A stretch of DNA of 64,000 bases from NCBI RefSeq assembly GCF_024502345.1, contig NZ_JALDNN010000001.1. One strand, written 5' to 3'. The position numbers and the translations under genes are program-made. Under the pieces are notes generated by a model, which was given only the letters and a program-made list of their open reading frames with translations, ran no database searches and was not told the DNA's origin. Below, piece after piece: positions 16,350 to 64,000 of this stretch. The first letter of the stretch is position 1. Each line of letters starts with the position of its first letter. This DNA is from Escherichia coli (GTDB lineage Bacteria; Pseudomonadota; Gammaproteobacteria; Enterobacterales; Enterobacteriaceae).

Positions 16350-18812
16350 TCAGACTCCTAACTTCCATGAGAGGGTACGTAGCAGATCGGCAAAGACACC
16401 GGCAGCGGTAACGTCATTGCCCGCACCATATCCGCGCAGCACCAACGGCAGCGGCTGATAATAGTGGCTATAGAAGGCCAGGGCGTTTTCGCCATTTTTC
16501 ACTTTGAACAGCGGATCATTACCATCCACTTCGGCAATCTTCACGCGGCAGACGCCATCTTCATCAATATTGCCAACATAGCGCAAAACTTTTCCTTCAT
16601 CACGGGCCTTCGCCACGCGCGCGGCAAAGAGATCGTCGAGCTGTGACAGATTCGCCATAAAAGCGGCAACATCACCCTCGGCGTTAAACTCTGCGGGCAG
16701 CACAGGTTCAATTTCAATATCCGCCAGCTCCAGTTCACGTCCCGTTTCACGAGCGAGAATTAATAGTTTACGCGCTACATCCATACCAGAAAGATCATCT
16801 CGCGGATCCGGTTCGGTATAACCCATTTCCCGCGCCAGCGTAGTCGCCTCGGAGAAACTCATGCCTTCGTCTAACTTGCCGAAGATATAAGAAAGCGAAC
16901 CTGAAAGAATGCCGGAGAACTTCATCAATTCATCACCAGCATTGAGCAGATTTTGCAGGTTCTCAATAACCGGTAATCCAGCCCCAACGTTGGTGTCATA
17001 GAGGAATTTACGCCGCGATTTTTCCGCCGCATGACGCAACAGATGGTAGTAATCCATCGACGAGGTGTTGGCCTTTTTGTTCGGCGTGACAACGTGGAAA
17101 CCTTCGCGCAAGAAGTCGGCATATTGATCCGCCACTGCCTGGCTGGAGGTGCAGTCAACAATGACCGGGTTTAGCAGATGATATTCTTTCACGAGGCGAA
17201 TTAAGCGCCCGAGATTAAACGGCTCTTTGGCTTGCGCCAGTTCTTCCTGCCAGTTTTCCAGATTTAGGCCATGCACATTGGTGAGCAGAGCCTTCGAGTT
17301 AGCAACACCGCAGACACGTAAGTCGATATGTTTATTCTTCAACCAGCTTTGCTGACGCTTCAGTTGCTCCAGCAGCGCACCGCCAACGCCACCGACGCCA
17401 ATCACAAACACTTCGATAACCTGATCGGTATTGAACAGCATCTGATGAGTAACGCGCACGCCAGTGGTCGCATCATCGTTATTTACCACGACAGAGATTG
17501 AGCGTTCAGAAGATCCCTGAGCAATAGCGACAATGTTGATATTGGCGCGGGCCAGCGCGGCAAAGAATTTCGCCGAGATCCCACGCAAGGTACGCATACC
17601 ATCACCTACCACCGAGATAATGGCCAGCCGTTCCGTCACCGCCAGCGGCTCCAGTAAGCCTTCTTTCAGTTCCAGGTAGAACTCTTCCTGCATTGCCCGT
17701 TCAGCTCGCACACAGTCGCTTTGTGGAACGCAGAAACTGATACTGTATTCGGAAGATGATTGCGTAATCAGCACCACGGAAATACGGGCGCGTGACATCG
17801 CTGCAAAGACGCGCGCCGCCATGCCGACCATTCCTTTCATCCCCGGGCCGGAAACGCTGAACATTGCCATGTTATTCAGATTGGAAATGCCCTTGACCGG
17901 TAATTCGTCTTCATCACGACTGGCACCAATGAGCGTACCTGGTGCTTGAGGATTTCCGGTATTTTTAATCAGGCAAGGGATCTGGAACTGGGCGATGGGG
18001 GTAATGGTACGGGGGTGAAGAACTTTAGCGCCGAAGTAAGAAAGCTCCATCGCTTCCTGGTAGGACATCGATTTCAACAACCTCGCATCGGGCACCTGAC
18101 GCGGGTCGCAGGTATATACCCCGTCAACGTCCGTCCAAATCTCGCAACAATCGGCGCGTAAACAGGCAGCCAGCACCGCCGCGGAGTAGTCGGAACCGTT
18201 GCGTCCAAGTACCACCAGTTCGCCTTTTTCATTACCGGCGGTGAAACCTGCCATCAGCACCATGTGATCAGCCGGAATACGACTTGCCGCAATACGGCGG
18301 GTGGACTCAGCAATATCGACGGTAGATTCGAGGTAATGCCCCACTGCCAGCAGTTTTTCGACCGGATCGATAACGGTAACGTTGTGACCACGCGCTTCTA
18401 ACACGCCGGCCATAATGGCGATTGACATTTTCTCGCCACGGCAAATCAGCGCAGCGTTAATGCTATCCGGGCACTGCCCTAACAAACTAATGCCATGCAG
18501 GACATGTTTTATTTGAGCAAATTCCTGGTCGACGAAAGTTTTCAATTGCGCCAGCGGGAATCCCGGCTGGGCGGCGGCGAGTCCCGTCAGAAGTTCGGCA
18601 AAAATACGTTCGGCATCGCTGATATTGGGTAAAGCATCCTGGCCGCTAATGGTTTTTTCAATCATCGCCACCAGGTGGTTGGTGATTTTGGCGGGGGCAG
18701 AGAGGACGGTGGCCACCTGCCCCTGCCTGGCATTGCTTTCCAGAATATCGGCAACCCGCAGAAAACGTTCTGCATTTGCCACTGATGTACCGCCGAACTT
18801 CAACACTCGCAT
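16350..18812 (-). CDS. thrA: Bifunctional aspartokinase I / homoserine dehydrogenase I
   Basis: 820-aa product from the internal [17 protein letters not shown] start; the track ORF is a 14-codon upstream extension. Confidence 0.97.
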
Positions 18813-48571: not shown

Positions 48572-50158
48572 TTAATGCTCGCGGGTCTGGTGGAACTGAA
48601 CGTCCGGATAACGTTCCTGCGCCAGGCGCAGATTGACCATGCTGGTAGCGATGTAAGCGAGGTTATCGCCGCCATCAAGCGCCAGTTGGCTTTCGTTCTT
48701 ACGCTTGAACTCTTCGAATTTCTTCGCGTCCGCACATTCTACCCAGCGGGCAGTGGCAACGTTGACTGACTCATACACTGCTTCAACGTTGTATTCGCTC
48801 TTCAGGCGCGCTACAACCACATCAAACTGCAGCACACCAACTGCACCAACGATCAGGTCGTTGTTGGAGATCGGACGGAACACCTGCACCGCGCCCTCTT
48901 CGGAAAGCTGTACCAGCCCTTTGAGCAGCTGTTTTTGCTTCAGCGGATCTTTCAGGCGGATACGACGGAACAGTTCTGGTGCGAAGTTCGGAATACCGGT
49001 GAACTTCATCATCTCACCCTGGGTAAAGGTGTCGCCGATCTGAATGGTGCCGTGGTTGTGCAGGCCGAGGATATCGCCAGGATACGCTTCTTCAACGTGC
49101 GAACGGTCACCCGCCATAAAGGTCAGCGCGTCAGAGATCACCACGTCTTTCGCGGTGCGCACCTGGCGCAGCTTCATGCCTTTTTCATATTTACCGGATA
49201 CCACGCGCATAAACGCCACGCGGTCGCGGTGTTTCGGGTCCATGTTGGCCTGAATTTTAAATACGAAGCCGGTAAATTTGTCTTCGCTCGCTTGTACGGT
49301 ACGGGTATCAGTCTGACGCGGCATCGGCGCAGGTGCCCACTCCACCAGGCCATCCAACATATGATCGACGCCGAAGTTACCCAGCGCAGTACCGAAGAAT
49401 ACCGGAGTGATTTCGCCCGCAAGGAACAGCTCTTTGTCGAACTCGTTAGACGCGCCTTTAACCAGTTCCAGTTCGTCACGCAGCTGCTGTGCCAGATCTT
49501 CACCAACCGCAGCATCGAGATCCGGGTTATTCAGCCCTTTAACAATGCGGACTTCCTGAATGGTGTGCCCTTTACCGCTCTGATAGAGATAGGTTTCATC
49601 TTTATAAAGGTGGTAAACGCCTTTAAACAGCTTGCCGCAGCCAATCGGCCAGGTGATCGGCGCACAGCCGATTTTCAGCTCGTTCTCAACTTCATCGAGC
49701 AGTTCCATCGGGTCGCGGATATCACGGTCAAGTTTGTTCATAAAGGTGAGGATCGGCGTGTCGCGCAGACGGGTAACTTCCATCAGCTTACGGGTACGAT
49801 CTTCAACACCTTTTGCGGCGTCGATAACCATCAGGCAGCAGTCCACCGCCGTCAGGGTACGATAGGTATCTTCCGAGAAGTCTTCGTGCCCCGGGGTGTC
49901 TAGCAGGTTAACCAGGCAATCGTGATACGGAAACTGCATCACAGACGTAGTAATGGAGATCCCACGCTGCTTTTCCATCTCCATCCAGTCCGACTTAGCG
50001 TGCTGGTTGGAACCACGGCCTTTTACTGTACCAGCGGTCTGAATGGCCTGTCCGAACAGCAGCACCTTCTCGGTGATGGTAGTTTTACCGGCGTCCGGGT
50101 GAGAAATAATTGCAAAGGTTCTTCTTTTCGCTACCTCTGCGGCCAAAAGGCTTGTCAT
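48572..50158 (-). CDS. prfC: Peptide chain release factor 3 (N-terminus differs from K-12)
   Basis: 528-aa from [27 protein letters not shown]...; K-12 RF3 as recalled begins MTLSPYLQEVAKRR. Confidence 0.93.
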
Positions 50159-50176
50159 AATTGTTGTCTCTTTGAT

Positions 50177-50293
50177 TATGTACAATCATATGTACAAAGA
50201 AAAATTCATGCCGCTGATTGTACATTTTGGAGGTATCAGAGCATAGCAGAACATGATCAGTAGGTGTATTTGTAGCCAAAGAACATTTGTACA
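50177..50293. repeat. Cluster of four TGTACA hexamers (two as TATGTACAA spaced 12 bp)
   Basis: TGTACA at 50179, 50191, 50219 and 50288, far above chance; lies between the prfC start and the dinI-like gene. Confidence 0.6.
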
Positions 50294-50346
50294 TGCAGCA
50301 ATCTTTGTTCTATTGACACTGTTTATTCATACAGTTAAAAATAACA

Positions 50347-50362
50347 CTGTATACAAACACAG
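50347..50362 (+). promoter_or_regulatory. LexA (SOS) box upstream of the dinI-like gene
   Basis: ctgtatacaaacacag = CTGT-N8-ACAG, 16 bp upstream of the start codon. Confidence 0.75.
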
Positions 50363-50377
50363 TGTAGAGGGATTTTT

Positions 50378-50626
50378 ATGCGTATTGAGATCTGCATAGC
50401 CAAAGAGAAAATGACTAAAATGCCAAACGGTGCTGTGGATGCGTTAAAGGAAGAATTAACTCGACGCATCAGTAAGCGTTATGACGATGTAGAGGTGATC
50501 GTAAAAGCCACCAGCAACGATGGCCTTTCTGTTACGCGCACCGCCGATAAAGATTCAGCTAAAACTTTTGTTCAGGAAACTCTGAAAGATACCTGGGAGT
50601 CTGCTGACGAGTGGTTTGTTCACTAA
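50378..50626 (+). CDS. DinI-family DNA-damage-inducible protein
   Basis: 82-aa [31 protein letters not shown]...[15 protein letters not shown]; C-terminus resembles DinI (QETWESADDWF). Confidence 0.85.
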
Positions 50627-51052
50627 TTAACACGTAAAATCGGTAACGGCTGGAAATCATTCAATACTCGCACTATCGGAAGTTCACCAGCCAACCGCAG
50701 CACGTTCTTGCATACGACGTGTCTGCGGTTTTTCAACCATTCAGATACAGCACTCTCATCACATTCATTCTTCCGCATTAAAGTATATATGACCATATCA
50801 CCTTAATATTTTTCTTCTTCAGATAAAAATTGTTATCTATGTATACTTTTAAACCGAATCCGTGTAGAGTCTCTACCTAAGTTAGTTCGCAGCTACCCCT
50901 TCAGTTTGCGCCATTAACCTCCTGACTTTTGCCGCTATCTGTAAGCATTCCTGTATACCTGAAACTACAGGGTTCATCTACGAACTTTAAGAACACCCAG
51001 GATAAAAATTGTCAACTATATTATATATAACACCATACTAATTCGAGGCTAT

Positions 51053-51166
51053 ATGAACAGCATACTGATAATCACTTCACTACTTATCATATTCAGCATT
51101 TTTGGTCATGCTCTAATAAAATTAGGGATTGGCATATCCAATAACCCGGACAAAACCGATGTATAA
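51053..51166 (+). CDS. Hypothetical 37-aa hydrophobic peptide
   Basis: [37 protein letters not shown]; GAGG 5 nt upstream of the ATG; promoter-like AT-rich element upstream. Confidence 0.35.
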
Positions 51167-51234
51167 GTCAACATATCCTGAATCAGACATACAATATTGC
51201 AATGAAAACCAATAATATTTTAAGGAATATCTTC

Positions 51235-51468
51235 ATGAAATCAAAAGACACCCTAAAGTGGTTCCCTGCGCAGCTTCCTGAAGTCAGAATTATCCTGGGA
51301 GATGCTGTCGTGGAAGTAGCAAAACAGGGAAGACCTATCAATACCAGAACATTGCTTGATTACATTGAAGGAAACATAAAGAAAAAGTCATGGCTGGATA
51401 ACAAAGAATTATTACAAACAGCGATATCAGTTCTTAAAGACAACCAAAATTTAAATGGTAAAGTGTAA
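51235..51468 (+). CDS. ydfK: YdfK/YnaE-family prophage protein (cold-shock-inducible family in K-12)
   Basis: 77-aa MKSKDTLKWFPAQLPEVRIILGDAVVEVAKQGRPINTRTLLDYIEG...; AGGAA RBS. Confidence 0.7.
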   Translation: MKSKDTLKWFPAQLPEVRIILGDAVVEVAKQGRPINTRTLLDYIEGNIKKKSWLDNKELLQTAISVLKDNQNLNGKV

Positions 51469-51847
51469 TACCTCCCCTGAAAAATAATTTTTCAATGCAT
51501 TAAAAAAATATCAACAACTACGTTATTCCGCAACAACCTACTTTTTTTACCATTTTTCCACTTTAACAACATTTTGCTCCACTTTTCCACGACCAAACAA
51601 CTTAAAATCTGGTTAAAATAACATACAACACTATTATTCGTCTTCCTCGAGTCCGCCCGGAGTTCGAAAAACAAACCGAGTTAAAGCCATTTTTCAAAAA
51701 ATCGATTTTTGGTTACACCAAAATTACGGGACTGCATCCGAATTCGTTTATTTTCGAACGTATACATACAAATATGTACAATAATAAGCGAAATAATTTT
51801 TGGATATGCATTATGATATGTACACCAATTTCGTATAGAGTCTCACT

Positions 51848-52438
51848 ATGTCTCGAATTTTTGCTTACTGTCGGATATCAACGCTGGATCAGACCCCCGA
51901 AAATCAACGCCGGGAAATCGAAAGTGCAGGTTTTAAAATCAAACCTCAGCAAATAATCGAAGAACACATTAGCGGCTCAGCAGCAACCAGTGAGCGTCCT
52001 GGTTTTAACCGGTTGCTTGCTCGCCTGAAATGTGGTGATCAATTGATTGTGACAAAACTGGATCGCCTTGGTTGTAATGCAATGGATATCAGGAAAACAG
52101 TGGAACAACTGACCGAAACAGGTATCAGAGTGCATTGCTTAGCATTGGGGGGCATTGACCTGACCAGTCCAACAGGAAAAATGATGATGCAAGTAATTTC
52201 AGCAGTCGCTGAATTTGAACGAGACCTTTTACTTGAACGCACTCATTCCGGGATAGTAAGAGCCCGGGGCGCAGGGAAACGTTTTGGTCGACCACCTGTG
52301 TTAAATGAAGAACAGAAACAGGTGGTATTCGAACGAATTAAGTCAGGTGTAAGTATAAGTGCCATTGCCCGGGAATTCAAAACCTCGCGGCAAACCATTT
52401 TAAGAGCCAAAGCAAAACTTCAGACACCTGACATATAA
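51848..52438 (+). CDS. pin: Serine recombinase, Pin-like DNA invertase (PinQ/PinR type)
   Basis: 196-aa [15 protein letters not shown]...; resolvase/invertase catalytic N-domain plus C-terminal HTH. Confidence 0.85.
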
Positions 52439-52535
52439 AAAATAATCTCGGTGTGAGATGCTTTACGTCTTCCAAGCCCCCTTCCTTGCCGTAAATGGAA
52501 AGATACATCTAATTATAGAATTTATATGTTTTACC

Positions 52536-53111
52536 CTACGGCAGTGCTGGCCATTCAATATCCTGTGCAGTTGACGTATCAACACGGTTCAGCAATACCC
52601 GATACTTTTTCCATGCTTCCAGCAACGAGATTTCTTCCTCCGTTGCAATTTCCAGATCTGCAGCATCCTGAAGCGGCGCAATATGCTCACTGGCTACCTG
52701 CATCAGGTTGTTTTTTGTTTCTTCCGCCTCCCGGATCCGGAACAGTTTTTCTGCTTCCGTATCCTTCACCCAGGCTGTGCCGTTCCACTTCTGAAACTCC
52801 CCTTCCGGGGATAACCAAGTGACATTTTCCGGTAATGGGCCAAGTTCAGAAATAAATAACGCGTCGCCGGAAGCCACGTCATAGACGGTTTTACCCCGAT
52901 GGTCTTCAACGAGATGCCACGATGCCTCATCACTGTTGAAAACAGCCACAAAGCCAGCCGGAATATCTGGCGGTGCAATATCGGTACTGTTTGCTGGCAG
53001 ACCTGTATGAGGTGGAATATATGCATCACCTTCACCAATAAATTCATTAGTTCCGGCCAGCAGATTATAAATTGTTATGGTCCGTGGTTGTTCACTCATT
53101 CTGAAATCCAT
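52536..53111 (-). CDS. tfa: Tail fibre assembly protein Tfa
   Basis: 191-aa from the ATG preceded by an AGGTG SD; ...[37 protein letters not shown]... as recalled for TfaQ/TfaR. Confidence 0.85.
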
Positions 53112-53119
53112 GTTCACCT

Positions 53120-54022
53120 CTACTTAATATCAGAGACAGAATATTGTTTATTGAACGTATGGGTGTGAGCACCAATAACGATGCTACTTCCGTGGCTATG
53201 TGCGCCAGAGATGACATTACCTACGGGATTTTCTGGATTAATCCGGTGTATATGCGAACCAGGGCGAAACCGGTTATTAGCCTGATGTTGTATCAGTACA
53301 TCATCAGCCTGATGTTCAGGGTTAATACAGACCTGCCCGGAACGTGAGCAATACGTCCGATAATCGCCGCATCCAATATATTTAGTATCCGCATAACGGC
53401 AAACAGAATTACCCGGACAGTATGCATATGTGCCAAATACTGCCGACTGGCGGGATTGTGCGTATTCCCAGTTAATTGATTCTGTTTTTTTATTAAAGTT
53501 ATCCCATGCCTGCTTCATCTGCCGGGCAACACTTTCAAACGGCACCTGACCACATCCGGCTCCCATTGCAGGGAATACCACCGTTTTTATTTTCCTGTCT
53601 GTCGTTGCGTGTTTATTGTGCTGAAAGATGGCAAGCAGAGCGGCCCAGGTTGCGTTATATACAGCGTCTGTTCCGTCAATTGTCAGCGGAACACGCATTG
53701 TTGGCGCATGTACCAGCCAGGGATGATGATTATGCCCCGTTTCAATAACAAATGCAGAACCTACAGGCTGCTCGCCGAGATATTCACGAAGAATATGATT
53801 CTGAACGCGGGACTGTAACTGAGTACCGAAGAATGCGGTAATGGCGGCATCAACACCGCCATCCATCAGGCCGAAACTGTTTGCCGCACTTACCATGCAG
53901 TCAAATTCCCTGATTGTTTCAAATGGCTTTCCGACAATATTCACATTATCTGCATTTGCGAATACCCGCTTAAATGCTTCAGCCATTTCTGTTACTGGTG
54001 CAGAAAGAATGAGCGTAATCAT
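53120..54022 (-). CDS. Macrodomain protein with tail-fibre-like His-x-His C-terminal region
   Basis: Macrodomain motifs [42 protein letters not shown]; C-terminal ...[18 protein letters not shown]; ATG overlaps the stop of the upstream stf fragment. Confidence 0.6.
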
Positions 54023-54186
54023 GCAAGCCTCACAATATAGTTAAATGCGATGTTTTTGACGGTGTTTTCCGCGTTACCAGCAGCGTTAACGGTGATGGTG
54101 TGTCCATGTGACCCTATCGCAACGGAGTGCGTATGAGCACCAATACCGACAGTATGCGCGTGTGCACCTGCAGATACTGCTGTAAA
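54019..54186 (-). pseudogene. Side tail fibre (Stf) C-terminal fragment
   Basis: ...[51 protein letters not shown]; joined out of frame to the terminase fragment upstream. Confidence 0.7.
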
Positions 54187-54892
54187 AACGCATGAAATGT
54201 GCCGACTCGTTAGCGGCTTTTTCGATCTGGCAGGAGCCTTTGATTTTAGGCGTCGAGCCGCGAATGGATTTTGGCCATACAGAGCCCTCAATACGTTTAT
54301 CCCCCAGCAGGGTTGGCGAACCCTCTTTTTCAACATCCGGTTCGAACGAGGAAAGTTCGTCATAGCAGACCACATCCACGGATTTTTCACGGTAGTTTTT
54401 GGCGGCAGCGCCGCCCAGGCACCATAAACCGACGCCCGATGAAAAGCGTTTCAGCGTGAGGGTATTATCACGATGTTTACGACCCAGCCATGGGGAAAGG
54501 TCTTTCAGGCATGGCACGTCCCTAATCGTCGTCTCCACGTGAGACTTCATAAAATCTTCAGCGGCAGAATCCGTGGGCTGAAAAAGCAGACTGTTTCGGG
54601 ATTTATGCTCAATAAAATACCCGACCACCCCCAGCAACATCTTTGTATAGCCAACACGGGCAGATTTAATCAGATTAACTGTGCGGATCTGATCATTCCC
54701 CATACTGTTCATGATGGCGATCTGGAACGGCAGCGTTTTCCATTCGCCGTCACCGTATGAGGATTCTTTCGGCAGATAATAATACTGATCAGCCCATTCA
54801 ACTGCCGTCATCGGTACAACCCTGACCAGAGGCTGCAGCGCAACCGAAACGGCAGCCATCAGATTATTCAGTTGTTGCTCTGATATATTCAT
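54185..54892 (-). pseudogene. Terminase large subunit (lambda gpA-like) N-terminal fragment, about 235 codons
   Basis: MNISEQQLNNL...PMTAVEWADQYYYLPKESSYGDGEWKTLPFQ...[41 protein letters not shown] closely parallels lambda gpA 1-215, then similarity stops. Confidence 0.85.
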
Positions 54893-55370
54893 CCAGCAAA
54901 TCCGGTAATTTATCCCCTGCCCGCGCACACTGATTTGCGCCCTTCGCAATAAGGGTTTTCAGATGGTCAAGATGACGTGGCGTTAAATCCGGGAACTGTC
55001 GCTGCATGGATAACGGAATAGAATCAAGCGTACTGGACAATGCCATCGCCAGCTTGCTGAGGGCGAAAACGCAGAAGTCTGAATCGATGAGCTTACCTTC
55101 GGTTACCTGATTTTTAAGTTTTTGAGCTACGGCCTGTTCTTCTGTCAGTTCAGCTCTGGCCCGAAGCAGCCTTTCCTCCAGATCGCCCCCGTCATCAGGT
55201 GTTCTATGATTGTGTTGTCGCCGCTCGCGATCTATCTCCAGTACAGTTTTAACGTCATAAAAAACTTCCCTCCCCCGACGCTCGACAGGAGGAACGCCCC
55301 ATTTATCAAATGCCTGAACAGAGATACCGATGGAGGAGGCCATATCACTTTTATTCAATAAAAAGGCCAT
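54864..55370 (-). CDS. noh: Terminase small subunit, Nu1-like (Noh)
   Basis: MAFLLNKSDMASSIGISVQAFDKWGV... resembles lambda Nu1; GGAGAGGAG SD; 3' end overlaps the terminase-A fragment start. Confidence 0.8.
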   Translation of the reverse strand: MAFLLNKSDMASSIGISVQAFDKWGVPPVERRGREVFYDVKTVLEIDRERRQHNHRTPDDGGDLEERLLRARAELTEEQAVAQKLKNQVTEGKLIDSDFCVFALSKLAMALSSTLDSIPLSMQRQFPDLTPRHLDHLKTLIAKGANQCARAGDKLPDLLDEYIRATTE

Positions 55371-55797
55371 CTCCTCTCCATAAGTCATCGATAAAAAGCG
55401 ATACAACAACCATGTGTTTTTACAAAACCATTTGATATCATTTAATTTTTTCACATTAATGACATCAAAGCACATCGTAAGGTTGTTGTATTTATTTTAT
55501 TTTCACCTTACTTATCAATTAGATATACCAAACAATTAAACAACAACCACCCCCTCAAAAAATCTCATAAATAGCGAAAAACCGCGAGGTCGCCGCCCCG
55601 TAACCTGTCGGATCGCCGGAAAGGACCCACAAAATGATAATAATTATCATCTACATATCACAACGTGCGTGTACGCCATCAAACCACGTCAAATAATCAA
55701 TTATGACGCAGGTATCGTATTAATTGATCCGCATCAACTTAACGTAAAAACAACTTCAGACAATACAAATCAGCGACACAGAATACGGGACAACCTC

Positions 55798-55989
55798 ATG
55801 TCAACGAAGAACAGAACCCGCAGAACAACAACCCGCAACATCCGCTTTCCTAACCAAATGATTGAACAAATTAACATCGCTCTTGATCAAAAAGGGTCCG
55901 GGAATTTCTCAGCCTGGGTCATTGAAGCCTGCCGTCGGAGACTAACGTCAGAAAAGAGAGCATCTACATCAATCAAAAGTGATGAATAA
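55798..55989 (+). CDS. YlcI/YnfO-family small prophage protein (DUF3950)
   Basis: 63-aa MSTKNRTRRTTTRNIRFPNQMIEQINIALDQKGSGNFSAWVIEACRRRLTSEKRASTSIKSDE. Confidence 0.7.
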   Translation: MSTKNRTRRTTTRNIRFPNQMIEQINIALDQKGSGNFSAWVIEACRRRLTSEKRASTSIKSDE

Positions 55990-56242
55990 TGAATATCCCG
56001 GTTTCTTTACCTCCCCTCCCACCCCGCACAGGACTGGCGAACGTGTGGGACAAATATGTGAGTCATAAACGCCTTATCTTCAGAAATGCAGTTGGCATCC
56101 GAACAGGACGATATTGTAACTTCACCTAATTACGAGGCATTGCAGTAGTTGAATTGTAGTTCTGTATTAGCCTGACAGTGACAGAATGCGATATTGACTC
56201 TGTCACAGGTGAAATAGTTTGAATGGTTAGCAGTTATGGCGA

Positions 56243-56449
56243 TCAGTCAACCACCAGGGAATAATCCTTCGAATTCTTATCGTGCTTCACCAACGCTGCC
56301 TCAATTGCCCTGAATGCTTCCAGAGACACTTGATGTTCTATACATGCAATTACAACATCCGGATAACTCATAGAAATGGTGCTAGTGAGCATAGTTTTTA
56401 CACGGACCTGATCCAAGGATGAGTCATCAGTGTATTGATCTTTATGCAT
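56243..56449 (-). CDS. Hypothetical 68-aa protein (possibly a truncated YdfO-like gene)
   Basis: ORF only; identity uncertain. Confidence 0.35.
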
Positions 56450-56744
56450 TTTGTCGCTCCATGCGTTTGCTCTTCACTTGCGGCTAAAAATATAACGTCA
56501 AATCACTCAGCATGAAAGTGTGAAAGTTTCAGCGCGTTTCCCTTACATAATCTGTCGTTTGTATTCTCTCCAGGCATACCGGAAAGACTAGGTATTGTCA
56601 CACAACCAATACCACCGACTATCGAGATTTATATCTATTCGGTAATGTTTAAATATAAAAAAACCCCGTAAAAACGAGGTTTATGGGTAAATTGTATTGT
56701 TGAATAGCATCTGATAAGAAATTGATGCTAATACTATAAACACA

Positions 56745-56918
56745 CTAGATTAAATCAATCTTGATATCATAGCTTTCAAGACCAGTCATTTTTTCCCGTG
56801 CAGTAAACTGGATACTGGTAACTTCTTTCCCGGTCTTTTTCTTAAGCTCAATAATTTTTTTTGTTATATATTCAGAAATATCTGCTTCTGTTTTTGTTTT
56901 TAACTCTTCAATGTTCAT
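56745..56918 (-). CDS. gnsB: GnsA/GnsB-family protein
   Basis: 57-aa MNIEELKTKTEADISEYITKKIIELKKKTGKEVTSIQFTAREKMTGLESYDIKIDLI. Confidence 0.85.
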   Translation of the reverse strand: MNIEELKTKTEADISEYITKKIIELKKKTGKEVTSIQFTAREKMTGLESYDIKIDLI

Positions 56919-57090
56919 CATTTCCTCTTTTAGTCTGTTATGACTTTCCTGGTACACAGTAGTGTCAATTATATGGAGCAAACGTATAAAAGATAAGATG
57001 AAACATCGCAATAATCAACATACGACAGTCTAAATTTCGCACAAACAGATAAAGATGATTATCCTTTATTATCAAGGCATTAGAATGAAA

Positions 57091-57321
57091 TCAATTCAAG
57101 AGTCTCATTGCTGCTTCCAGAATTTCTTCTGAAGTTACATGTCGATCCGCTGCTACATAAATGACTTTATGATCTCCGGTCAGAGATGGAAACCCTGCAG
57201 CCATTACAGTGAGATGTGTTGTTTCGCCATTTGGATATTCACGCATGATGGTGTTAACTCCGGTCATCACTGGCACTACCATTGCTGGTTCAGAGTTAAA
57301 AAAAACTATTATTTTTTTCAT
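57091..57321 (-). CDS. Hypothetical 76-aa protein
   Basis: MKKIIVFFNSEPAMVVPVMTGVNTIMREYPNGETTHLTVMAAGFPSLTGDHKVIYVAADRHVTSEEILEAAMRLLN. Confidence 0.45.
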   Translation of the reverse strand: MKKIIVFFNSEPAMVVPVMTGVNTIMREYPNGETTHLTVMAAGFPSLTGDHKVIYVAADRHVTSEEILEAAMRLLN

Positions 57322-57363
57322 GATGTTACCGTAATATGTGAGTATCCATCGACTAGACACTAA

Positions 57364-57386
57364 GCAAAAAAGCTCCCGAAGGAGCC
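57364..57386 (-). terminator. Rho-independent terminator (minus strand)
   Basis: gctcccgaaggagc hairpin followed by TTTTTT on the minus strand. Confidence 0.6.
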
Positions 57387-57592
57387 TTCATTTTCACTTT
57401 CTTAAATCTAACGACAGACGGCTAACATTTAAGTATTGTGAAATATTATCAAATGTAATCATCATTGATTTACAAAAGATACATTTTGCCCCGAAAGGAT
57501 TCCTGTCAGAAACATCAAAAGATGATGTTCTATACTGAGAACCATGGCAACACGGGCATCTAAAGTGAATATGGTTTGTAATATTTTCTACC

Positions 57593-57805
57593 TCAAAGTG
57601 CCACTACATGAACAGCCGCGGGGCCTTTAGGTCCGTTCTCAATACCAAATTCGACTTGCTGATTCTCAGTTAACGTTTTGAAATCGTTGCTCTGAATAGC
57701 TGAGAAATGGACAAACACATCTTTGCTACCATCTTTCGGCGTGATGAAACCAAAACCTTTTTCAGGGTTAAACCATTTCACTAAACCAGTCATTTTGTTA
57801 GACAT
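57593..57805 (-). CDS. cspI: Cold shock protein, CspI-like
   Basis: 70-aa [70 protein letters not shown]. Confidence 0.92.
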
Positions 57806-58174
57806 CATTATTACCTTTTGAAGAAGTGAGCCCTTGGGCAGAATGGTCCGAAAAAAAATATCAGAGAGAAAAACCAACAAGGAAATCTCAAGAGGTACAA
57901 ATAATAAAATTATAACAATGACTGCTTCAGATAATTTTGTAACAAACCAGAACACCATTAACGCATGATTAACCAACCATAGCAAGGATTACTTTTGTAA
58001 AGAAAAACACACGAATGAAACAATAGCTTTATTTATTAATAAAACGTGTCATTCTGTCTAATGACCTTTTATCTTACCCTTAAGATTTCAAGGATTTTGA
58101 CTCATGGAAGAGTCCTTTTTATTTAAATTTCACATTCAGCGCTAAAAATAATCCGATTTAATGTTAATCTACAT

Positions 58175-59196
<1,022 letters not shown>

Positions 59197-59301
59197 GGAT
59201 ATTTATCAGGATTTATCGGTTTCTGAACCCTGGATATGTTTATCTGTCCCGGCCTGTTGAATCAGGCGGGGAAAAGGTAAAGACAATCAAGAGGATTATT
59301 T

Positions 59302-59574
59302 ATGGACAATAACACCATTTCTCTACAGGAGTTGCTCGACTGCATTTCAAAGCTTCGGGATGATGTAAATGCCCTCACTGTTGCATTTTCATATTTGGCC
59401 TTATCAATTCCCAGAGAACAAATGCAACCAACACTGGCATCGCTCCTGCTTGAATCACGCAACCCCAAATGGTCCCAGGAACAACAAAATTCTTTCAAGT
59501 GGCTGGCGGCATTACTGGAAGAAAAATATGCTGGTAAAATTACCATTTCGGTGGAGTCTTCAGAGAATCAGTAA
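59302..59574 (+). CDS. Hypothetical 90-aa protein on the opposite strand within the lysis cassette
   Basis: AGGA 7 nt upstream of the ATG; MDNNTISLQELLDCISKLRDDVNALTVAFSYLALSIPREQMQPTLASLLLE... Confidence 0.35.
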   Translation: MDNNTISLQELLDCISKLRDDVNALTVAFSYLALSIPREQMQPTLASLLLESRNPKWSQEQQNSFKWLAALLEEKYAGKITISVESSENQ

Positions 59575-59884
59575 TTCTTCCTGGTAGCTTTCCTTTGTAG
59601 GTTATCCACACATTCTGCGCCTCTAAAATTACGGGGCGCTTTTCCGGCGACTGCTCATCCCCTTCACATAACCCGGCTGCAACTTCCAGGAAGACCTGTC
59701 TGATGCTCCTTCTGGCTGCTGCCTCATAAAACTCCAGCGCGGCACCTTCAACACGGTCCAGCGAGATGTCCAGGTCAAAAATTTCACCGTCAAAGCGTTT
59801 TTTGTCCCTTAATGCTACAGTTACCGCAACTTTATTCTCAAAATTGCGGATCCCTTTCACAATCAGTTCATAGTTTTGTGTCAT
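59540..59884 (-). CDS. YdfR-like prophage protein (DUF1327)
   Basis: MTQNYELIVKGIRNFENKVAVTVALRDKKRFDGEIFDLDISLDRVEGAALEFYEAAARRS... Confidence 0.65.
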   Translation of the reverse strand: MTQNYELIVKGIRNFENKVAVTVALRDKKRFDGEIFDLDISLDRVEGAALEFYEAAARRSIRQVFLEVAAGLCEGDEQSPEKRPVILEAQNVWITYKGKLPGRITDSLKTPPKW

Positions 59885-59888
59885 TGAA

Positions 59889-60104
59889 TTACTCTCCCCG
59901 TGCAACCTTACGCTTGTCTTCTTTAATCTTGAAATAAAGGTTTGTCAGGTACGTCAGCAAGCCAAATACCAGACTACCCAGCACACCGATTGCAGCCCAC
60001 TGTGACGGAGTTACTTTATCGAGTAACTGCAATGCCCAGAAACCAGCATTACCAGCCGATGTGCCATAGGCGATACCTGTTGTTAACTTATCCATTGATT
60101 TCAT
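59889..60104 (-). CDS. Phage holin (EssQ/EssD type)
   Basis: 71-aa [71 protein letters not shown]. Confidence 0.88.
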
Positions 60105-60322
60105 ATCCTCACCCCGATGTACACAGATGGTGCAATATGTTTGAAAAGATCGGAGTCTATGGGGTAGTTTTTATAGCAAACGTTGTTCTCAACGGCGCTA
60201 AAAAACAGACACATTAAAAATGTGGGTAATTATTTTAAAAGAAAATCATATATTAAATAATAATACGAGATATGTTTTCATATTTAGTGTACTGTATACG
60301 GCCATTTATACAGGAAAAGCCT

Positions 60323-60493
60323 ATGTCAGAACGTAAAGACTCAAAATCACGCCGTAATTATCTCGTTAAATGTTCCTGCCCAAACTGCACCCAAGAGTCA
60401 GAACACAGTTTTTCAAGAGTACAAAAAGGTGCCCTTTTGATCTGCCCTCATTGCAACAAAGTATTCCAGACAAATCTTAAAGCTGTAGCTTGA
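60323..60493 (+). CDS. Small zinc-ribbon protein (56 aa)
   Basis: MSERKDSKSRRNYLVKCSCPNCTQESEHSFSRVQKGALLICPHCNKVFQTNLKAVA; CxCPNC...CPHC; AGGAAAAG RBS. Confidence 0.55.
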   Translation: MSERKDSKSRRNYLVKCSCPNCTQESEHSFSRVQKGALLICPHCNKVFQTNLKAVA

Positions 60494-60552
60494 TTGATTT
60501 TATTCGTAACAAGTATTTTTTATATTTTAATAACATATTTAAAGCAGATAAT

Positions 60553-60576
60553 AAAAAACCCGCCTGAGCGGGTTTA
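60553..60576. terminator. Bidirectional rho-independent terminator
   Basis: aaaaaacccgcctgagcgggttt. Confidence 0.7.
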
Positions 60577-60856
60577 ATATTGTGGTACTTTTTGTGGGAG
60601 TCATCCACTTACGCACTTTGTTTTGCTATGCCAGCAGTTAGCTTCTGCTGTAAAACTATTCATGCAGCAAACCTGCACTTCACCACAATGGTTAGCATAC
60701 TTTTCCTGATTAAGTTATTGCCAAATATGCTGGCCATTGTTTCATGTATTGGACCTCCTTACTCTTTATTAAAGAGATCCAATATTCACCACTCTGTCTG
60801 TATCTCCACTCAGGCATCAGCCTTCTTCGTTATCGTATACAGACAAACTATGAATT

Positions 60857-61072
60857 TTAATCAGTAATTATGACATTTGCTGCTGCAGGACCTTTAGCAC
60901 CACTCTCTACAGAGAAGGTAACCTTTTGACCTTCAAATAAGATTCGATAATTATCATTCTGAATCGCAGAAAAATGCACAAACACATCTTTACTACCATC
61001 AACAGGAGAAATAAAGCCAAAACCTTTATCAGCGTTAAACCATTTTACTAAACCAGTCATTTTATTTGACAT
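60857..61072 (-). CDS. cspB: Cold shock protein, CspB-like
   Basis: 71-aa [71 protein letters not shown]. Confidence 0.92.
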
Positions 61073-61372
61073 TCTACATTCCTTAACTTGAGCCTTTCGG
61101 CATAAATGGCTTGTATAACAGAAACGACTTCGTACTTAATTGGAGAGACTCAAAGAAGGAATAAGTGAATAACACCTGAAATGAGAACTGCTTTAGTAAA
61201 CTACTTCGTATATCGTCTGTTCTTCAAACCGACGCAATCATTAACGCATAGTTGAACATATGAAGCAATGTTTATTTTAGACATCCAGCCATCTTCAACC
61301 CCATCAAAAAACTATAGCTTTCTTCAGGAACGTGTGTATAGTGCGCCAAGTTATCAGTATTAAGGAATTTTT

Positions 61373-61585
61373 TTGTCCCGTAAAATGACAGGAATTCTCA
61401 AAACCTTTGACGGCAAAAGCGGCAAAGGTCTTATAACCCCATCCGATGGTCGTATCGATGTCCAGCTTCATGTTTCAGCGCTCAATCTCCGCGATGCAGA
61501 AGAAATTACCACCGGATTACGCGTGGAATTTTGCCGGATAAATGGTCTGCGTGGACCATCAGCTGCCAATGTTTACCTTTCATGA
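61373..61585 (+). CDS. cspF: Cold shock-like protein, CspF/CspH type
   Basis: 70-aa [70 protein letters not shown]. Confidence 0.88.
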
Positions 61586-61639
61586 GCTATATTAAAGCTT
61601 TAACTTCAAGCCCCATCGAATCAAACATGGAGAGTTTTC

Positions 61640-61729
61640 ATGAATAAACCCGTCTGTCTTGATGACTGGTTGATTGGCTTTAAAAGCTTATGCTGTACTT
61701 TGACCTTAATAGCTCTGCTAATAATGTAA
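61640..61729 (+). CDS. Hypothetical 29-aa hydrophobic peptide
   Basis: [29 protein letters not shown]; GGAGAG SD 6 nt upstream. Confidence 0.3.
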
Positions 61730-61876
61730 TAAGCAGACTCATTGTATCTATGGACATTGTACTGGAAGAAAACATTTTAAACATCAGGCAAAAAACAAAG
61801 TCACCCGATAAATAATAAGTAAACTAACATGAATCCCGTAATGAGATTCAACATCTCTATTACCCTATTTAAAGCA

Positions 61877-61912
61877 CAAAAACCCGCTCATCAGCGGGTT
61901 TTCTACTTTTTC
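61877..61912 (+). terminator. Rho-independent terminator
   Basis: aacccgctcatcagcgggtt hairpin followed by a T run. Confidence 0.7.
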
Positions 61913-62007
61913 TTAACTTCGGGTATACAAAGCCCATCGTTGAAAAAATTTTATCCATATTTTTTGAAAAATGCAAGCATCACGTCGCCATCTTCGGCGA
62001 AAATCAC

Positions 62008-62760
62008 TTATCTCGTCACCTTTCTCAATTGTGCTTCAGCGTAAGATTCCTCCTGCCAGCACTTTGTAACCAGTTTATCAATGACATTTGCATATCCTTT
62101 ATACCACTGATAATCACTCAGGTCCGGTACCAGCTTCTGGACATGATGCCGCGCCAGTGTGGTTGGTAAACGACTAAACCGTTTTCCATTGCAACGCCCA
62201 CAAATCTTATAAACAGGTGTGCCATGAAGCCGGGTCCTTTTTTCATCCAAGACAATACCTTTACCCTTACACCCTCTGCACGCTGTGCTGACTTCTCCCT
62301 TACCATGGCAATGCTGACATAGTTCCTTCACCCACTCTTCTTTGATAACAGATTCCCCGCTTCTGGAGTGTTTCACCACTTCGCGCAATACATTATGAAA
62401 TCCAGTACCAGCACAATGCTCACAACGAGCCTTACTTGCCGCAGACCTGGAATAATCAGCAAAGGCAAAATTCACAAGGTAAGGAATAATCTGTAGCCGG
62501 GTTTCTTCACTCAATTTATTCAATGTCGGGTTATCCAGTGCCATCGCGTAATTGAGCAGACCTTCAATCGCAAACTGAGGATCCTGAACACCAACTTTTG
62601 CCAGGAATAAGGCAAACCCAAGCGGTGCTTTCGACTGCACCATCCCCTGCGCAGCCATCACATCCGTAATCGTTAAACCACCAGAGCCTGTCGCCGGTGC
62701 GTCATCACTCAATTTTGGAGATTTTGGGGAGTAATATTTTGGTAAGGCTTCAAGGTTCAT
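62008..62760 (-). CDS. Late-gene antiterminator Q (QuuQ/YdfT type)
   Basis: 250-aa ORF with Cys-rich zinc-finger-like segment CEHCAGTG...CQHCHGKGE...CRGCKGKG...CGRCNGK. Confidence 0.8.
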   Translation of the reverse strand: MNLEALPKYYSPKSPKLSDDAPATGSGGLTITDVMAAQGMVQSKAPLGFALFLAKVGVQDPQFAIEGLLNYAMALDNPTLNKLSEETRLQIIPYLVNFAFADYSRSAASKARCEHCAGTGFHNVLREVVKHSRSGESVIKEEWVKELCQHCHGKGEVSTACRGCKGKGIVLDEKRTRLHGTPVYKICGRCNGKRFSRLPTTLARHHVQKLVPDLSDYQWYKGYANVIDKLVTKCWQEESYAEAQLRKVTR

Positions 62761-62820
62761 GCTCGTTCTCCACTTACGCCAGTACGCCTATTGCCAGCGC
62801 ACGATCGATAAAACGAAATA

Positions 62821-63171
62821 TCAGCTCCAGCTGGGAGCCATACTTCTCTTCAAATGCCACGGTAAACGCTGGTTAATATCGGCATTGTCCACATCCTCGA
62901 CGTCAGGAAGAGACACAAAGACGCCATTTGCAGACTGCGCCACAGCGTCAGCAATGAAGTGAGTGCCACCAGCACGTTGTAAAATCATTGCCCATCCCAG
63001 CGGGAAAATCTGATCGCCATCGGCACGAAGGCGGTTAAATAATGCGTTCTCTGTTACATCCAGCCACTCAGCAGCTTCAGCGTACCCCACCGGCAACGCC
63101 GCGATAGTTTTTCTGACAGCTTTCACGTACCACTCAGGCTGTTTTTCCACTTTCCAGTGATGATTACCCAC
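62821..63171 (-). CDS. Hypothetical early-region protein, possibly CII-like regulator
   Basis: 116-aa, GTG start, immediately downstream of cro; family not identified. Confidence 0.45.
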   Translation of the reverse strand: MGNHHWKVEKQPEWYVKAVRKTIAALPVGYAEAAEWLDVTENALFNRLRADGDQIFPLGWAMILQRAGGTHFIADAVAQSANGVFVSLPDVEDVDNADINQRLPWHLKRSMAPSWS

Positions 63172-63424
63172 GGCTTACCTCCTGTTCCTGTGGTTTAAAC
63201 CCATTCTGGTTTTGGCTAGATTGAAAACGTGCCGGATAAAGAATCTGCATTTCGCTGATTTCACCCTTAAAAAAATTGGCCAGACGTTCTGCAAGATCGA
63301 TAGATGGAATTTGTTCCAGTCTTTCAATACGACTCAGCGTCGCTGGATTGACCTGAACGCCAGCAGCAACATGCTGCAAAGTAAATCCGTGCGCCTTACG
63401 CACATTCCGTAATGGTGATTGCAT
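63164..63424 (-). CDS. Cro-like HTH (XRE family) regulator
   Basis: 86-aa MQSPLRNVRKAHGFTLQHVAAGVQVNPATLSRIERLEQIPSIDLAERLANFF...; divergent from cI. Confidence 0.75.
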   Translation of the reverse strand: MQSPLRNVRKAHGFTLQHVAAGVQVNPATLSRIERLEQIPSIDLAERLANFFKGEISEMQILYPARFQSSQNQNGFKPQEQEVSRG

Positions 63425-63438
63425 ATGACCTCCACATA

Positions 63439-63501
63439 TTGCGTGATGAGCATATTATTTCACGCAAATATTTTGCGCAAGTTGATTTGCTTAACGCGCA
63501 A
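63439..63501. promoter_or_regulatory. Two dyad-symmetric operator candidates between cro and cI
   Basis: TTGCGTGA-N13-TCACGCAA at 63439-63467 and TTGCGCAA-N13-TTGCGCAA-type dyad at 63473-63501. Confidence 0.6.
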
Positions 63502-63521
63502 TAAAGAAATGTAATAAACGC

Positions 63522-64000
63522 ATGAACATAGGAAACCGAGTCAGACAACTTCGCCAAGCGAAGAACATGAAAATCGCCGATCTCGCTGAAGCAATAGGAG
63601 TGGATGCGGCGAATATCTCACGCCTGGAAACAGGTAAGCAGAAACAATTCACTGAACAAGCCCTGAGTAATATTGCCAGGAGCTTAGGTGTTGATATTGC
63701 TGATCTCTTTACCTCAGACTTCAAAAGTAATACTGTATGTAAAAACAGTGTTAGTGAGGATGTTGCGCAGGTGAAGGATGTATTCCGTATTGAAATGCTG
63801 GATGTCAGTGCCAGTGCGGGAAATGGCCTTATCCAGGGCGGTGATGTCATTGATGTGATTCATGCCATTGAATACAGAACTGATAATGCTGTATCGATGT
63901 TTGGCGGACGGCCAGCCAATCACATTAAAGTTATCAACGTTCGTGGGGACAGTATGTGTCCAACCATTGAGCCAGGAGATCTCATCTTCGTTGATGTCAG
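63522..64000 (+). CDS. CI-like repressor (HTH plus S24 LexA-type peptidase domain), truncated by window end
   Basis: MNIGNRVRQLRQAKNMKIADLAEAIGVDAANISRLETGKQ...VINVRGDSMCPTIEPGDLIFVDV; open to the last base. Confidence 0.8.
   Translation, partial: MNIGNRVRQLRQAKNMKIADLAEAIGVDAANISRLETGKQKQFTEQALSNIARSLGVDIADLFTSDFKSNTVCKNSVSEDVAQVKDVFRIEMLDVSASAGNGLIQGGDVIDVIHAIEYRTDNAVSMFGGRPANHIKVINVRGDSMCPTIEPGDLIFVDV

Follow-up and report, generated by a model that had tools for sequence, protein, structure and literature searches.

The window analysed here is a stretch of 64,000 nucleotides (64 kb) of Escherichia coli DNA (contig NZ_JALDNN010000001.1, assembly GCF_024502345.1), and the subject of this work is a short dinI-like gene at one end of a prophage within it. 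A sequence-only reading of the window had described this gene as a LexA-regulated moron. Our data suggest that positions 50313-50733 most likely form a self-contained, SOS-controlled moron cassette encoding a genuine DinI paralogue. The gene is already known: dozens of phage records and thousands of E. coli genomes label it DinI, and several papers include prophage DinI in their lists of cargo. What our analysis adds is a pair of predicted LexA operators flanking the -10 hexamer, the boundaries of the cassette, its predicted terminator and the retained RecA-contact residues. The two-operator promoter is a detail within a known kind.

We first consider the protein. The open reading frame (ORF) at 50378-50626 encodes 82 amino acids, as the sequence-only reading had described. 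The protein matched the Pfam DinI family (PF06183) over the complete profile (positions 1-63 of 63; E = 1.2e-19; 70.8 bits against a cut-off of 24.2), and phmmer aligned it end to end with E. coli DinI (PDB 1GHH/7YWA; residues 1-81, E = 7.9e-13). The RefSeq name for the gene is ‘DinI-like family protein’ (WP_001217539.1), including in genomes with the same prophage junction. The DinI fold is a small alpha/beta fold of ~80 residues, in which a three-stranded sheet lies against two helices, the C-terminal one long. An AlphaFold2 model, computed from an input alignment of ten sequences, predicted the same arrangement (strands at residues 2-8, 39-45 and 49-53; helices at 19-31 and 58-79; mean predicted local distance difference test score, 83.9). 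When we compared this predicted fold with the PDB using Foldseek, we observed matches to 1GHH (TM-score 0.82) and to 7YWA, which is DinI on the RecA filament (TM-score 0.80); the next match had an E value of 1e-2.

Cryo-electron microscopy and mutagenesis have shown that a hydrophobic pocket of DinI (L13, L21, W71, W77 and F78) receives RecA loop L2, and that an acidic patch (E24, E69 and D76) contacts RecA (PMC9926225). The aligned residues of the window protein are M15, L23, W73, W79 and F80 for the pocket and E26, D71 and E78 for the patch, five of the eight being identical and three conservative. RecA binding by the 82-residue protein is expected because these contact residues are conserved. 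The ratio of nonsynonymous to synonymous substitution rates (dN/dS) was 0.08-0.23 against homologues of 60-70% identity, and the gene is under purifying selection. Overall, sequence and predicted fold support the 82-residue protein as a genuine member of the DinI family.

We next describe the promoter region. Upstream of the gene, the sequence-only reading had noted one canonical LexA box (CTGT-N8-ACAG, 50347-50362) 16 bp before the start codon. This box (box 2, proximal) was recovered; 15 bases (50363-50377) separate its core from the ATG, which is 16 by the usual count. A second and higher-scoring box (box 1, distal; 50319-50334) had gone unnoticed and lies 28 bp further upstream, centre to centre. 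CTGT-N8-ACAG occurred three times in the window compared to 0.57 times expected from shuffles, and two of the three occurrences fell within the 44 bp directly upstream of the dinI-like gene. Scoring with a position weight matrix (PWM), the check that had been proposed, gave 23.2 bits for box 1 and 19.0 bits for box 2, against a best other non-SOS position of 13.7 bits and a background across the window of −32.7 ± 10.5 bits (mean and standard deviation). The PWM was symmetric, and the operator consensus used for comparison was the 20-bp TACTGTATATATATACAGTA. Known operators scored mostly 12-27 bits when each was left out of the matrix in turn (n = 28), with polB at 5.0 bits. The score of box 1 was in the range of the uvrB, dinQ and sulA operators, and that of box 2 was comparable to lexA, uvrA and ydjQ. 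As a cross-check, the LexA box of Salmonella phage Gifsy-1, which has a published heterology index of 4.55 (PMC8072944), scored 23.9 bits.

Both boxes overlap the predicted promoter or transcription start, which is the placement expected of operators in the LexA regulon. The top sigma-70-like match within 50100-51900 was TTGACA and AAAAAT separated by an 18-nt spacer, with 10 of 12 positions agreeing with the consensus. Box 1 fills the spacer exactly. Box 2, taken as a 16-mer, begins 4 nt past the -10 hexamer and covers the predicted transcription start, which would lie near 50349-50350, giving a monocistronic transcript with a predicted leader of ~28 nt. Among 24 distinct upstream variants of the cassette, the arms of box 2 were invariant in all 24 and those of box 1 in 23 (one had CTGG). 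The variants differed in the N8 centre of box 1, in the stretch that separates the boxes and close to the Shine-Dalgarno sequence, and the -10 core NAAAAT was kept in all cassette variants, that of phage BP-4795 included. These data support the two boxes as predicted LexA operators, two rather than one, of the quality seen at proven SOS genes. The earlier view that the gene is very likely LexA-repressed is in line with these results, as the operators score like proven SOS sites and overlap the predicted promoter or transcription start: the two sites very probably keep the gene off until DNA is damaged. Two ORFs in this region, 50253-50399 (plus strand) and 50335-50469 (minus strand), were rejected as genes; they overlap the promoter and operators and are otherwise without support. 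A minus-strand ‘terminator-like’ site at 50365-50344 was also rejected, being simply the palindromic box 2 and then the A-rich -10 region in reverse orientation.

Table 1. Predicted features of the dinI-like cassette (window coordinates)
Feature	Position	Strand	Remarks
-35 hexamer TTGACA	50313..50318	+	From promoter scan; left edge of the conserved cassette
LexA box 1 (distal) CACTGTTTATTCATACAGTT	50317..50336	.	Core CTGT-N8-ACAG CTGTTTATTCATACAG at 50319-50334
-10 hexamer AAAAAT	50337..50342	+	From promoter scan; predicted promoter
LexA box 2 (proximal) CACTGTATACAAACACAGTG	50345..50364	.	Core CTGTATACAAACACAG (ctgtatacaaacacag) at 50347-50362
Shine-Dalgarno GAGGG	50367..50371	+	6 nt before ATG; GAGGG or GGGGG among variants
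dinI-like gene	50378..50626	+	ATG start, 82 aa, stop codon within coordinates
3' untranslated region	50627..50694	+	Nearly invariant in 18 aligned variants
Intrinsic terminator	50695..50733	+	Predicted stem-loop CCGCAGCACGTT...GACGTGTCTGCGG at 50695-50728, TTTTT at 50729-50733; right edge of the cassette

The gene is followed, 68 nt past its stop codon, by a predicted terminator hairpin with a GC-rich stem of 12-13 bp (Table 1). The fold of 50620-50750 had a free energy of −31.9 kcal/mol (z = −3.06). When diverged variants were folded singly, the hairpin was kept by changes in both arms, such as CAGCACG/CGTGTCTG to CGGTACG/TGTACCG. A simple terminator scan did not pick up the hairpin because its loop is 9 nt long, and RNAalifold on the 3' region did not recover it because insertions and deletions shift the arms out of register. 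A candidate small hairpin at 50648-50692 showed no covariation in its predicted pairs across the 18 aligned variants, and Rfam gave no family match within 50100-50900. The extent of 50347-50626 given to the feature in the sequence-only reading covered box 2 and the gene; it left out the -35 hexamer and the terminator.

To define the boundaries of the cassette, we compared 80 IMG/VR loci encoding the same protein (98-100% identical). Upstream, the loci represented at least five unrelated contexts, and downstream at least eight. The sequence that they share started at the -35 hexamer (TTGACA or TTGATA; 24 upstream variants, 5 contexts) and stopped at the foot of the terminator hairpin, with the flanks diverging immediately after. 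The promoter, two operators, gene and terminator form a unit of ~420 bp (50313-50733), which is transcribed in the direction opposite to the tail (late) genes. Of 5426 complete E. coli genomes, 1512 carried the cassette at full length. Single genomes had as many as 9 matching places, and some O157 and other Shiga toxin-producing E. coli strains had six to eight, counts that include partial matches and a near-universal relic described below. A moron is an extra phage gene with its own promoter and terminator, dispensable for the phage life cycle and patchily distributed among related phages. The cassette fits this description as a predicted autonomous promoter-gene-terminator unit at the extreme end of the prophage, and the assignment, already made in the sequence-only reading, is favoured because the unit recurs with the same boundaries in multiple contexts. 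A minus-strand ORF at 50623-50796 (51 aa, ‘hypothetical’ in phage PhiR63_1) was rejected as a gene because it spans the right boundary of the cassette and is disrupted in every other context.

The relic is a decayed, unannotated copy of the cassette in the ecpE-ykgJ intergenic region of almost every complete E. coli genome (K-12 MG1655 304183-304494; L086 ~1184-1495). It starts at about codon 25 of dinI and runs as far as the terminator, and it lacks the promoter, boxes and start codon. Compared to the window, the K-12 relic is ~93% identical in the 3' untranslated part and ~75-79% identical in the coding part. Some strains carry an intact cassette at this site (L051). The dinI gene of phage PhiR12_2 (L087, 247-562) is a mosaic: its promoter, both operators and first ~17 codons hardly differ from the window, the remainder is ~30% diverged at the DNA level and the terminator is different. 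Recombination therefore occurs inside the cassette.

As judged from the DNA sequence, the host element is a defective lambdoid prophage in the 5' end of prfC, with the cassette at the far, non-integrase end. The prfC gene is on the minus strand (start codon at 50158), and homology to the K-12 chromosome resumes inside it, ~280 bp to the left of the cassette. Compared to K-12, prfC is near-identical from about codon 20 onward; before that, the residues EVAKRRTFA are kept with synonymous recoding, the first nine residues differ and the DNA upstream is unrelated. It follows that integration took place in the 5' end of prfC and that the element replaced the 5' end and promoter of the gene. Expression of release factor 3 in this strain is therefore from phage DNA, codons 1 to ~19 and the upstream region being phage-supplied (~50095-50312). 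SXT/R391 elements use the same integration site and likewise give prfC a new 5' end and promoter. Over the 751 bp around the dinI-like gene, the sequence is 100% identical to phage PhiR63_1 and 99.5% identical to phage 2H10, and the prophage-ordered record of PhiR63_1 ends at window position ~50095. The earlier placement of the gene at a prophage end agrees with both the prfC junction and the end of this record. Among complete E. coli genomes, none matched more than 78% of 50150-64000 in a single place. In the interval from the phage-supplied prfC start to the dinI promoter, we also observed an 8-mer, ATGTACAA/TTGTACAT, in four copies within 117 bp (50178-50185 and 50190-50197 direct; 50218-50225 and 50287-50294 inverted). 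These are probably candidate arm-type sites for integrase or excisionase by the attachment core.

The surviving prophage genes are Nu1, a truncated terminase, a tail-fibre fragment and its assembly gene, Pin, lysis genes, cold-shock genes, Q, a cII-like fragment, a cro-like gene and a cI-like gene. Head, tail and replication genes are missing from the prophage in the window. The missing parts correspond to two places (52536-55475 and 62008-63171). At the first, Nu1 (54864-55475) and the truncated terminase large subunit (54086-54949) abut the tail-fibre-region ORF and assembly gene with no head or tail genes between; at the second, the antiterminator gene Q (62008-62760) abuts the cII-like fragment (62821-63171) with no replication genes between.

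An alternative is that the cassette is a neutral passenger, functionless for phage and host, which persists by its position at the attachment site, where the deletions of prophage decay tend to stop. The prophage in the window is indeed a deleted remnant in which the cassette survives. The decayed ecpE-ykgJ relic is fixed in nearly all E. coli, K-12 included, and a position at the end of a prophage therefore favours persistence; deletions of the Gifsy homologues were also without an induction phenotype (PMC3121763). A passenger without function would not, however, be expected to have a dN/dS of 0.08-0.23 or to keep all eight RecA-contact residues as identical or conservative. Many independent contexts, and 1512 of the 5426 complete genomes, have the ORF, both operators and the terminator intact, and the gene decayed where selection lapsed, as in the K-12 relic. 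On balance, we consider this explanation improbable.

The boxes could also, or mainly, control the divergent prfC, which would place release factor 3 under SOS regulation. They accompany the dinI cassette in at least four further contexts in which prfC is not nearby, and the loci become similar only from the -35 hexamer onward. A distance of 160-205 bp separates the boxes from the prfC start codon, and the promoter scan found no minus-strand sigma-70-like site overlapping them. We therefore regard control of prfC as very improbable, although the phage replaces prfC codons 1 to ~19 and the region upstream, and the prfC promoter must lie between 50159 and ~50312, adjoining the boxes.

Least probable of all, and largely refuted by the apparent lack of a partner ORF, is that the gene belongs to an antirepressor induction module (Gifsy dinI-gfoA/gftA-irsA or 186 Tum type) with a LexA promoter driving the antirepressor: the box of Yersinia phage YeP3 does lie 305 nt upstream, before an extra ORF preceding dinI, and the Gifsy-type homologues (Gifsy-1, mEp237 and SEN34) are trailed by small same-strand ORFs, but tblastn with the partner ORFs of Gifsy-1, mEp237, SEN34 and YeP3 found none in the whole window (best E = 0.45), the cassette is monocistronic with a conserved terminator 68 nt past the stop codon and flanks that change right after, its 82-residue protein consists of a DinI domain only, the gene lies beyond the tail-fibre genes and outside the early region, and the prophage repressor is of the self-cleaving S24 type, for which an antirepressor is not needed.

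For the SOS-controlled DinI cassette, we infer the following sequence of events, including the direction and size of any effect on induction or mutagenesis. In an undamaged cell, LexA dimers would occupy both operators, one in the -35/-10 spacer and one over the predicted start, as the strength and placement of the operators imply. Occupancy of either operator would exclude RNA polymerase and leave the gene silent. Upon DNA damage, active RecA filaments would promote self-cleavage of LexA, and the monocistronic transcript would be made. The product would join chromosomal DinI within the RecA filament's groove, using the hydrophobic pocket (for RecA loop L2) and the acidic patch, and the added dose of DinI may stabilise filaments. 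The groove features taken up would be those needed by UmuD and CI-type repressors, and cleavage of these proteins could slow. Extra DinI would thereby compete with slowly cleaved substrates. The repressor of this prophage (cI-like; start at 63522, plus strand, running off the end of the window) has helix-turn-helix and Peptidase_S24 domains and would belong to this substrate class; a link to RecA-dependent repressor cleavage is therefore mechanistically possible.

The sequence-only reading had also suggested that a prophage copy of DinI could tune induction, which we treat as a hypothesis. In an extended form, the two-operator promoter would make this a later or higher-threshold SOS gene than chromosomal dinI, and the copies in a genome would jointly brake SOS mutagenesis and the induction of co-resident lambdoid prophages, including those encoding Shiga toxin (Stx). 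We consider this extended form unlikely. If it is true, a multi-copy dose of DinI during sustained damage would compete with CI-type repressors and UmuD for the RecA groove. Should the combined dose slow the cleavage of CI-type repressors, antibiotic induction of Stx and other lambdoid prophages would be affected, and many pathogenic E. coli carry several copies of the cassette. The idea that DinI dose affects prophage induction has been raised before (PMC8456039); we found no test of it in the literature that could be searched.

Several points weigh against a regulated and functional cassette, or reduce the force of the evidence for it. The prophage is heavily deleted (truncated terminase; no head, tail or replication genes), and tuning of induction therefore cannot matter for the propagation of the copy in the window. 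Non-polar deletions of the dinI homologues carried by Gifsy-1 and by Gifsy-3 caused no significant change in induction reporters (PMC3121763), and the phenotype of the cassette may therefore be small. Our literature searches found no experiment on the E. coli cassette (LexA footprint, transcript, RecA binding or effect on induction). The 28 E. coli operators in the PWM come, reportedly, from the Lewis 1994 and Fernandez de Henestrosa 2000 lists, and only the dinI site was checked against a genome (K-12), where it was confirmed. Because the cassette variants are closely related, the invariant arms of the boxes argue only moderately for selection. Lastly, we rejected PhiR12_2 as proof that the operators are more constrained than the gene, given the recombination breakpoint near codon 17.

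We also made observations on the prophage outside the cassette. The strongest LexA-like site in the window, TACTGTATGTAAAAACAGTG (63731-63750, 23.8 bits), lies inside the coding sequence of the cI-like repressor, where it encodes part of the inter-domain linker (SNTVCKNS). The exact 18-mer of this site was found in at least 107 IMG/VR contigs, always inside the same repressor allele, and the related prophage L003 carries the site as well (25.7 bits). We found no sigma-70-like promoter adjacent to the site in the window. L003, a prfC prophage of strain 2013C-4974, has a further LexA-like box, CACTGTTCATAAATACAGTA (18416-18435, 22.6 bits), between a RusA gene and a KilA-N domain gene. This box could mark a LexA-controlled gene of the KilA-N/antirepressor type; the RusA/KilA-N segment is deleted from the prophage in the window. 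We found no LexA-like sites of 12 bits or more in e14 of K-12.

Downstream of the cassette, the plus strand carries 51053-51166 (YnaM/YnfT-family, 37 aa), 51235-51468 (YdfK-like) and 51848-52438 (Pin). The Pin-type serine invertase (196 aa) is intact in the window and frameshifted in some otherwise identical prophages. A 300-aa ORF just upstream of the tail-fibre assembly gene (53120-54022, minus strand) matched the Macro domain (PF01661, E = 7e-19), which is unexpected for a tail-fibre region. Rfam matches in the window included IS009 inside the tail-fibre assembly gene (52570-52768, minus strand, 220.9 bits) and cspA-type thermoregulator leaders of the prophage cold-shock genes (57566-57963 and 60794-61233, both minus strand).

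Finally, we compared the cassette with known systems. The same gene is present in PhiR63_1 (PV340573, ‘DNA-damage-inducible protein’), 2H10, cdtI (‘RecA filament binding protein DinI’), mEp460, CP-1639 (dinI), VT1-Sakai (H0001) and many Stx-converting phages. The protein is 93.9-100% identical in the phages other than PhiR63_1, and the gene has the same end position in the prophage-ordered record. The two LexA operators, the promoter and the terminator were unannotated in the feature tables of all matching phage and RefSeq records examined. We found no paper describing a two-operator promoter for the E. coli cassette; the searches returned only annotations and speculation.

The chromosomal dinI of K-12 (b1061) encodes a protein ~44-49% identical to the window protein over its full length, with the same predicted fold and conserved RecA-contact residues. 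Like the cassette gene, it is LexA-controlled and monocistronic and has its own terminator. It differs in having a single operator, ACCTGTATAAATAACCAGTA, which overlaps the -10 hexamer, whereas the two predicted operators of the cassette flank it. Compared to K-12 DinI, the cassette protein has 2-residue insertions after K11 and D59 and is without the GH insertion. The cassette is also mobile and often multi-copy, in contrast to the K-12 chromosomal gene.

Coliphage 186 Tum, with split versions in PSP3 and Fels-2, is a LexA-controlled phage gene with DinI-like sequence (PMC3121763, discussion). Tum is a protein of 146 aa with antirepressor activity in its non-DinI half, whereas the window protein has neither such a half nor a neighbouring partner; the likeness to Tum is by description only.

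The closest experimental parallel comes from Salmonella. The Gifsy dinI homologues are induced 4.6-23 fold by nalidixic acid from a LexA-dependent promoter (PMC8072944, PMC3121763), and LexA control of prophage dinI homologues has been established experimentally only for these phages. The dinI genes of Gifsy-1, -2 and -3 are prophage-borne and, as in the cassette, their start codon comes 13-19 nt after a LexA box immediately upstream, and their 77-aa products are 42-45% identical to the window protein. They have one box overlapping the -10 hexamer and lie in the early region near ninB-type genes, whereas the cassette has two boxes and lies beyond the tail-fibre genes. In Gifsy phages, dinI comes first in the LexA-repressed dinI-gfoA/gftA-irsA operon, which includes an antirepressor that is absent at the cassette. 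The Gifsy repressors are not cleaved, in contrast to the S24-type repressor of the prophage in the window.

Among eight phage homologues with 37-70% protein identity, we observed a LexA-like box upstream of the gene in all eight. The two-box geometry was kept in PhiR12_2 and BP-4795 (the BP-4795 protein being 60% identical). One box at 13-19 nt from the start was found in Klebsiella phages P12620-1 and Kp4884-1 and in mEp237, Gifsy-1 and SEN34, and that of Yersinia phage YeP3 stands 305 nt upstream, before the extra ORF that precedes dinI. These data suggest that LexA control is constant among phage DinI genes, and that two operators flanking the -10 hexamer are particular to the cassette at the lambdoid prophage end.

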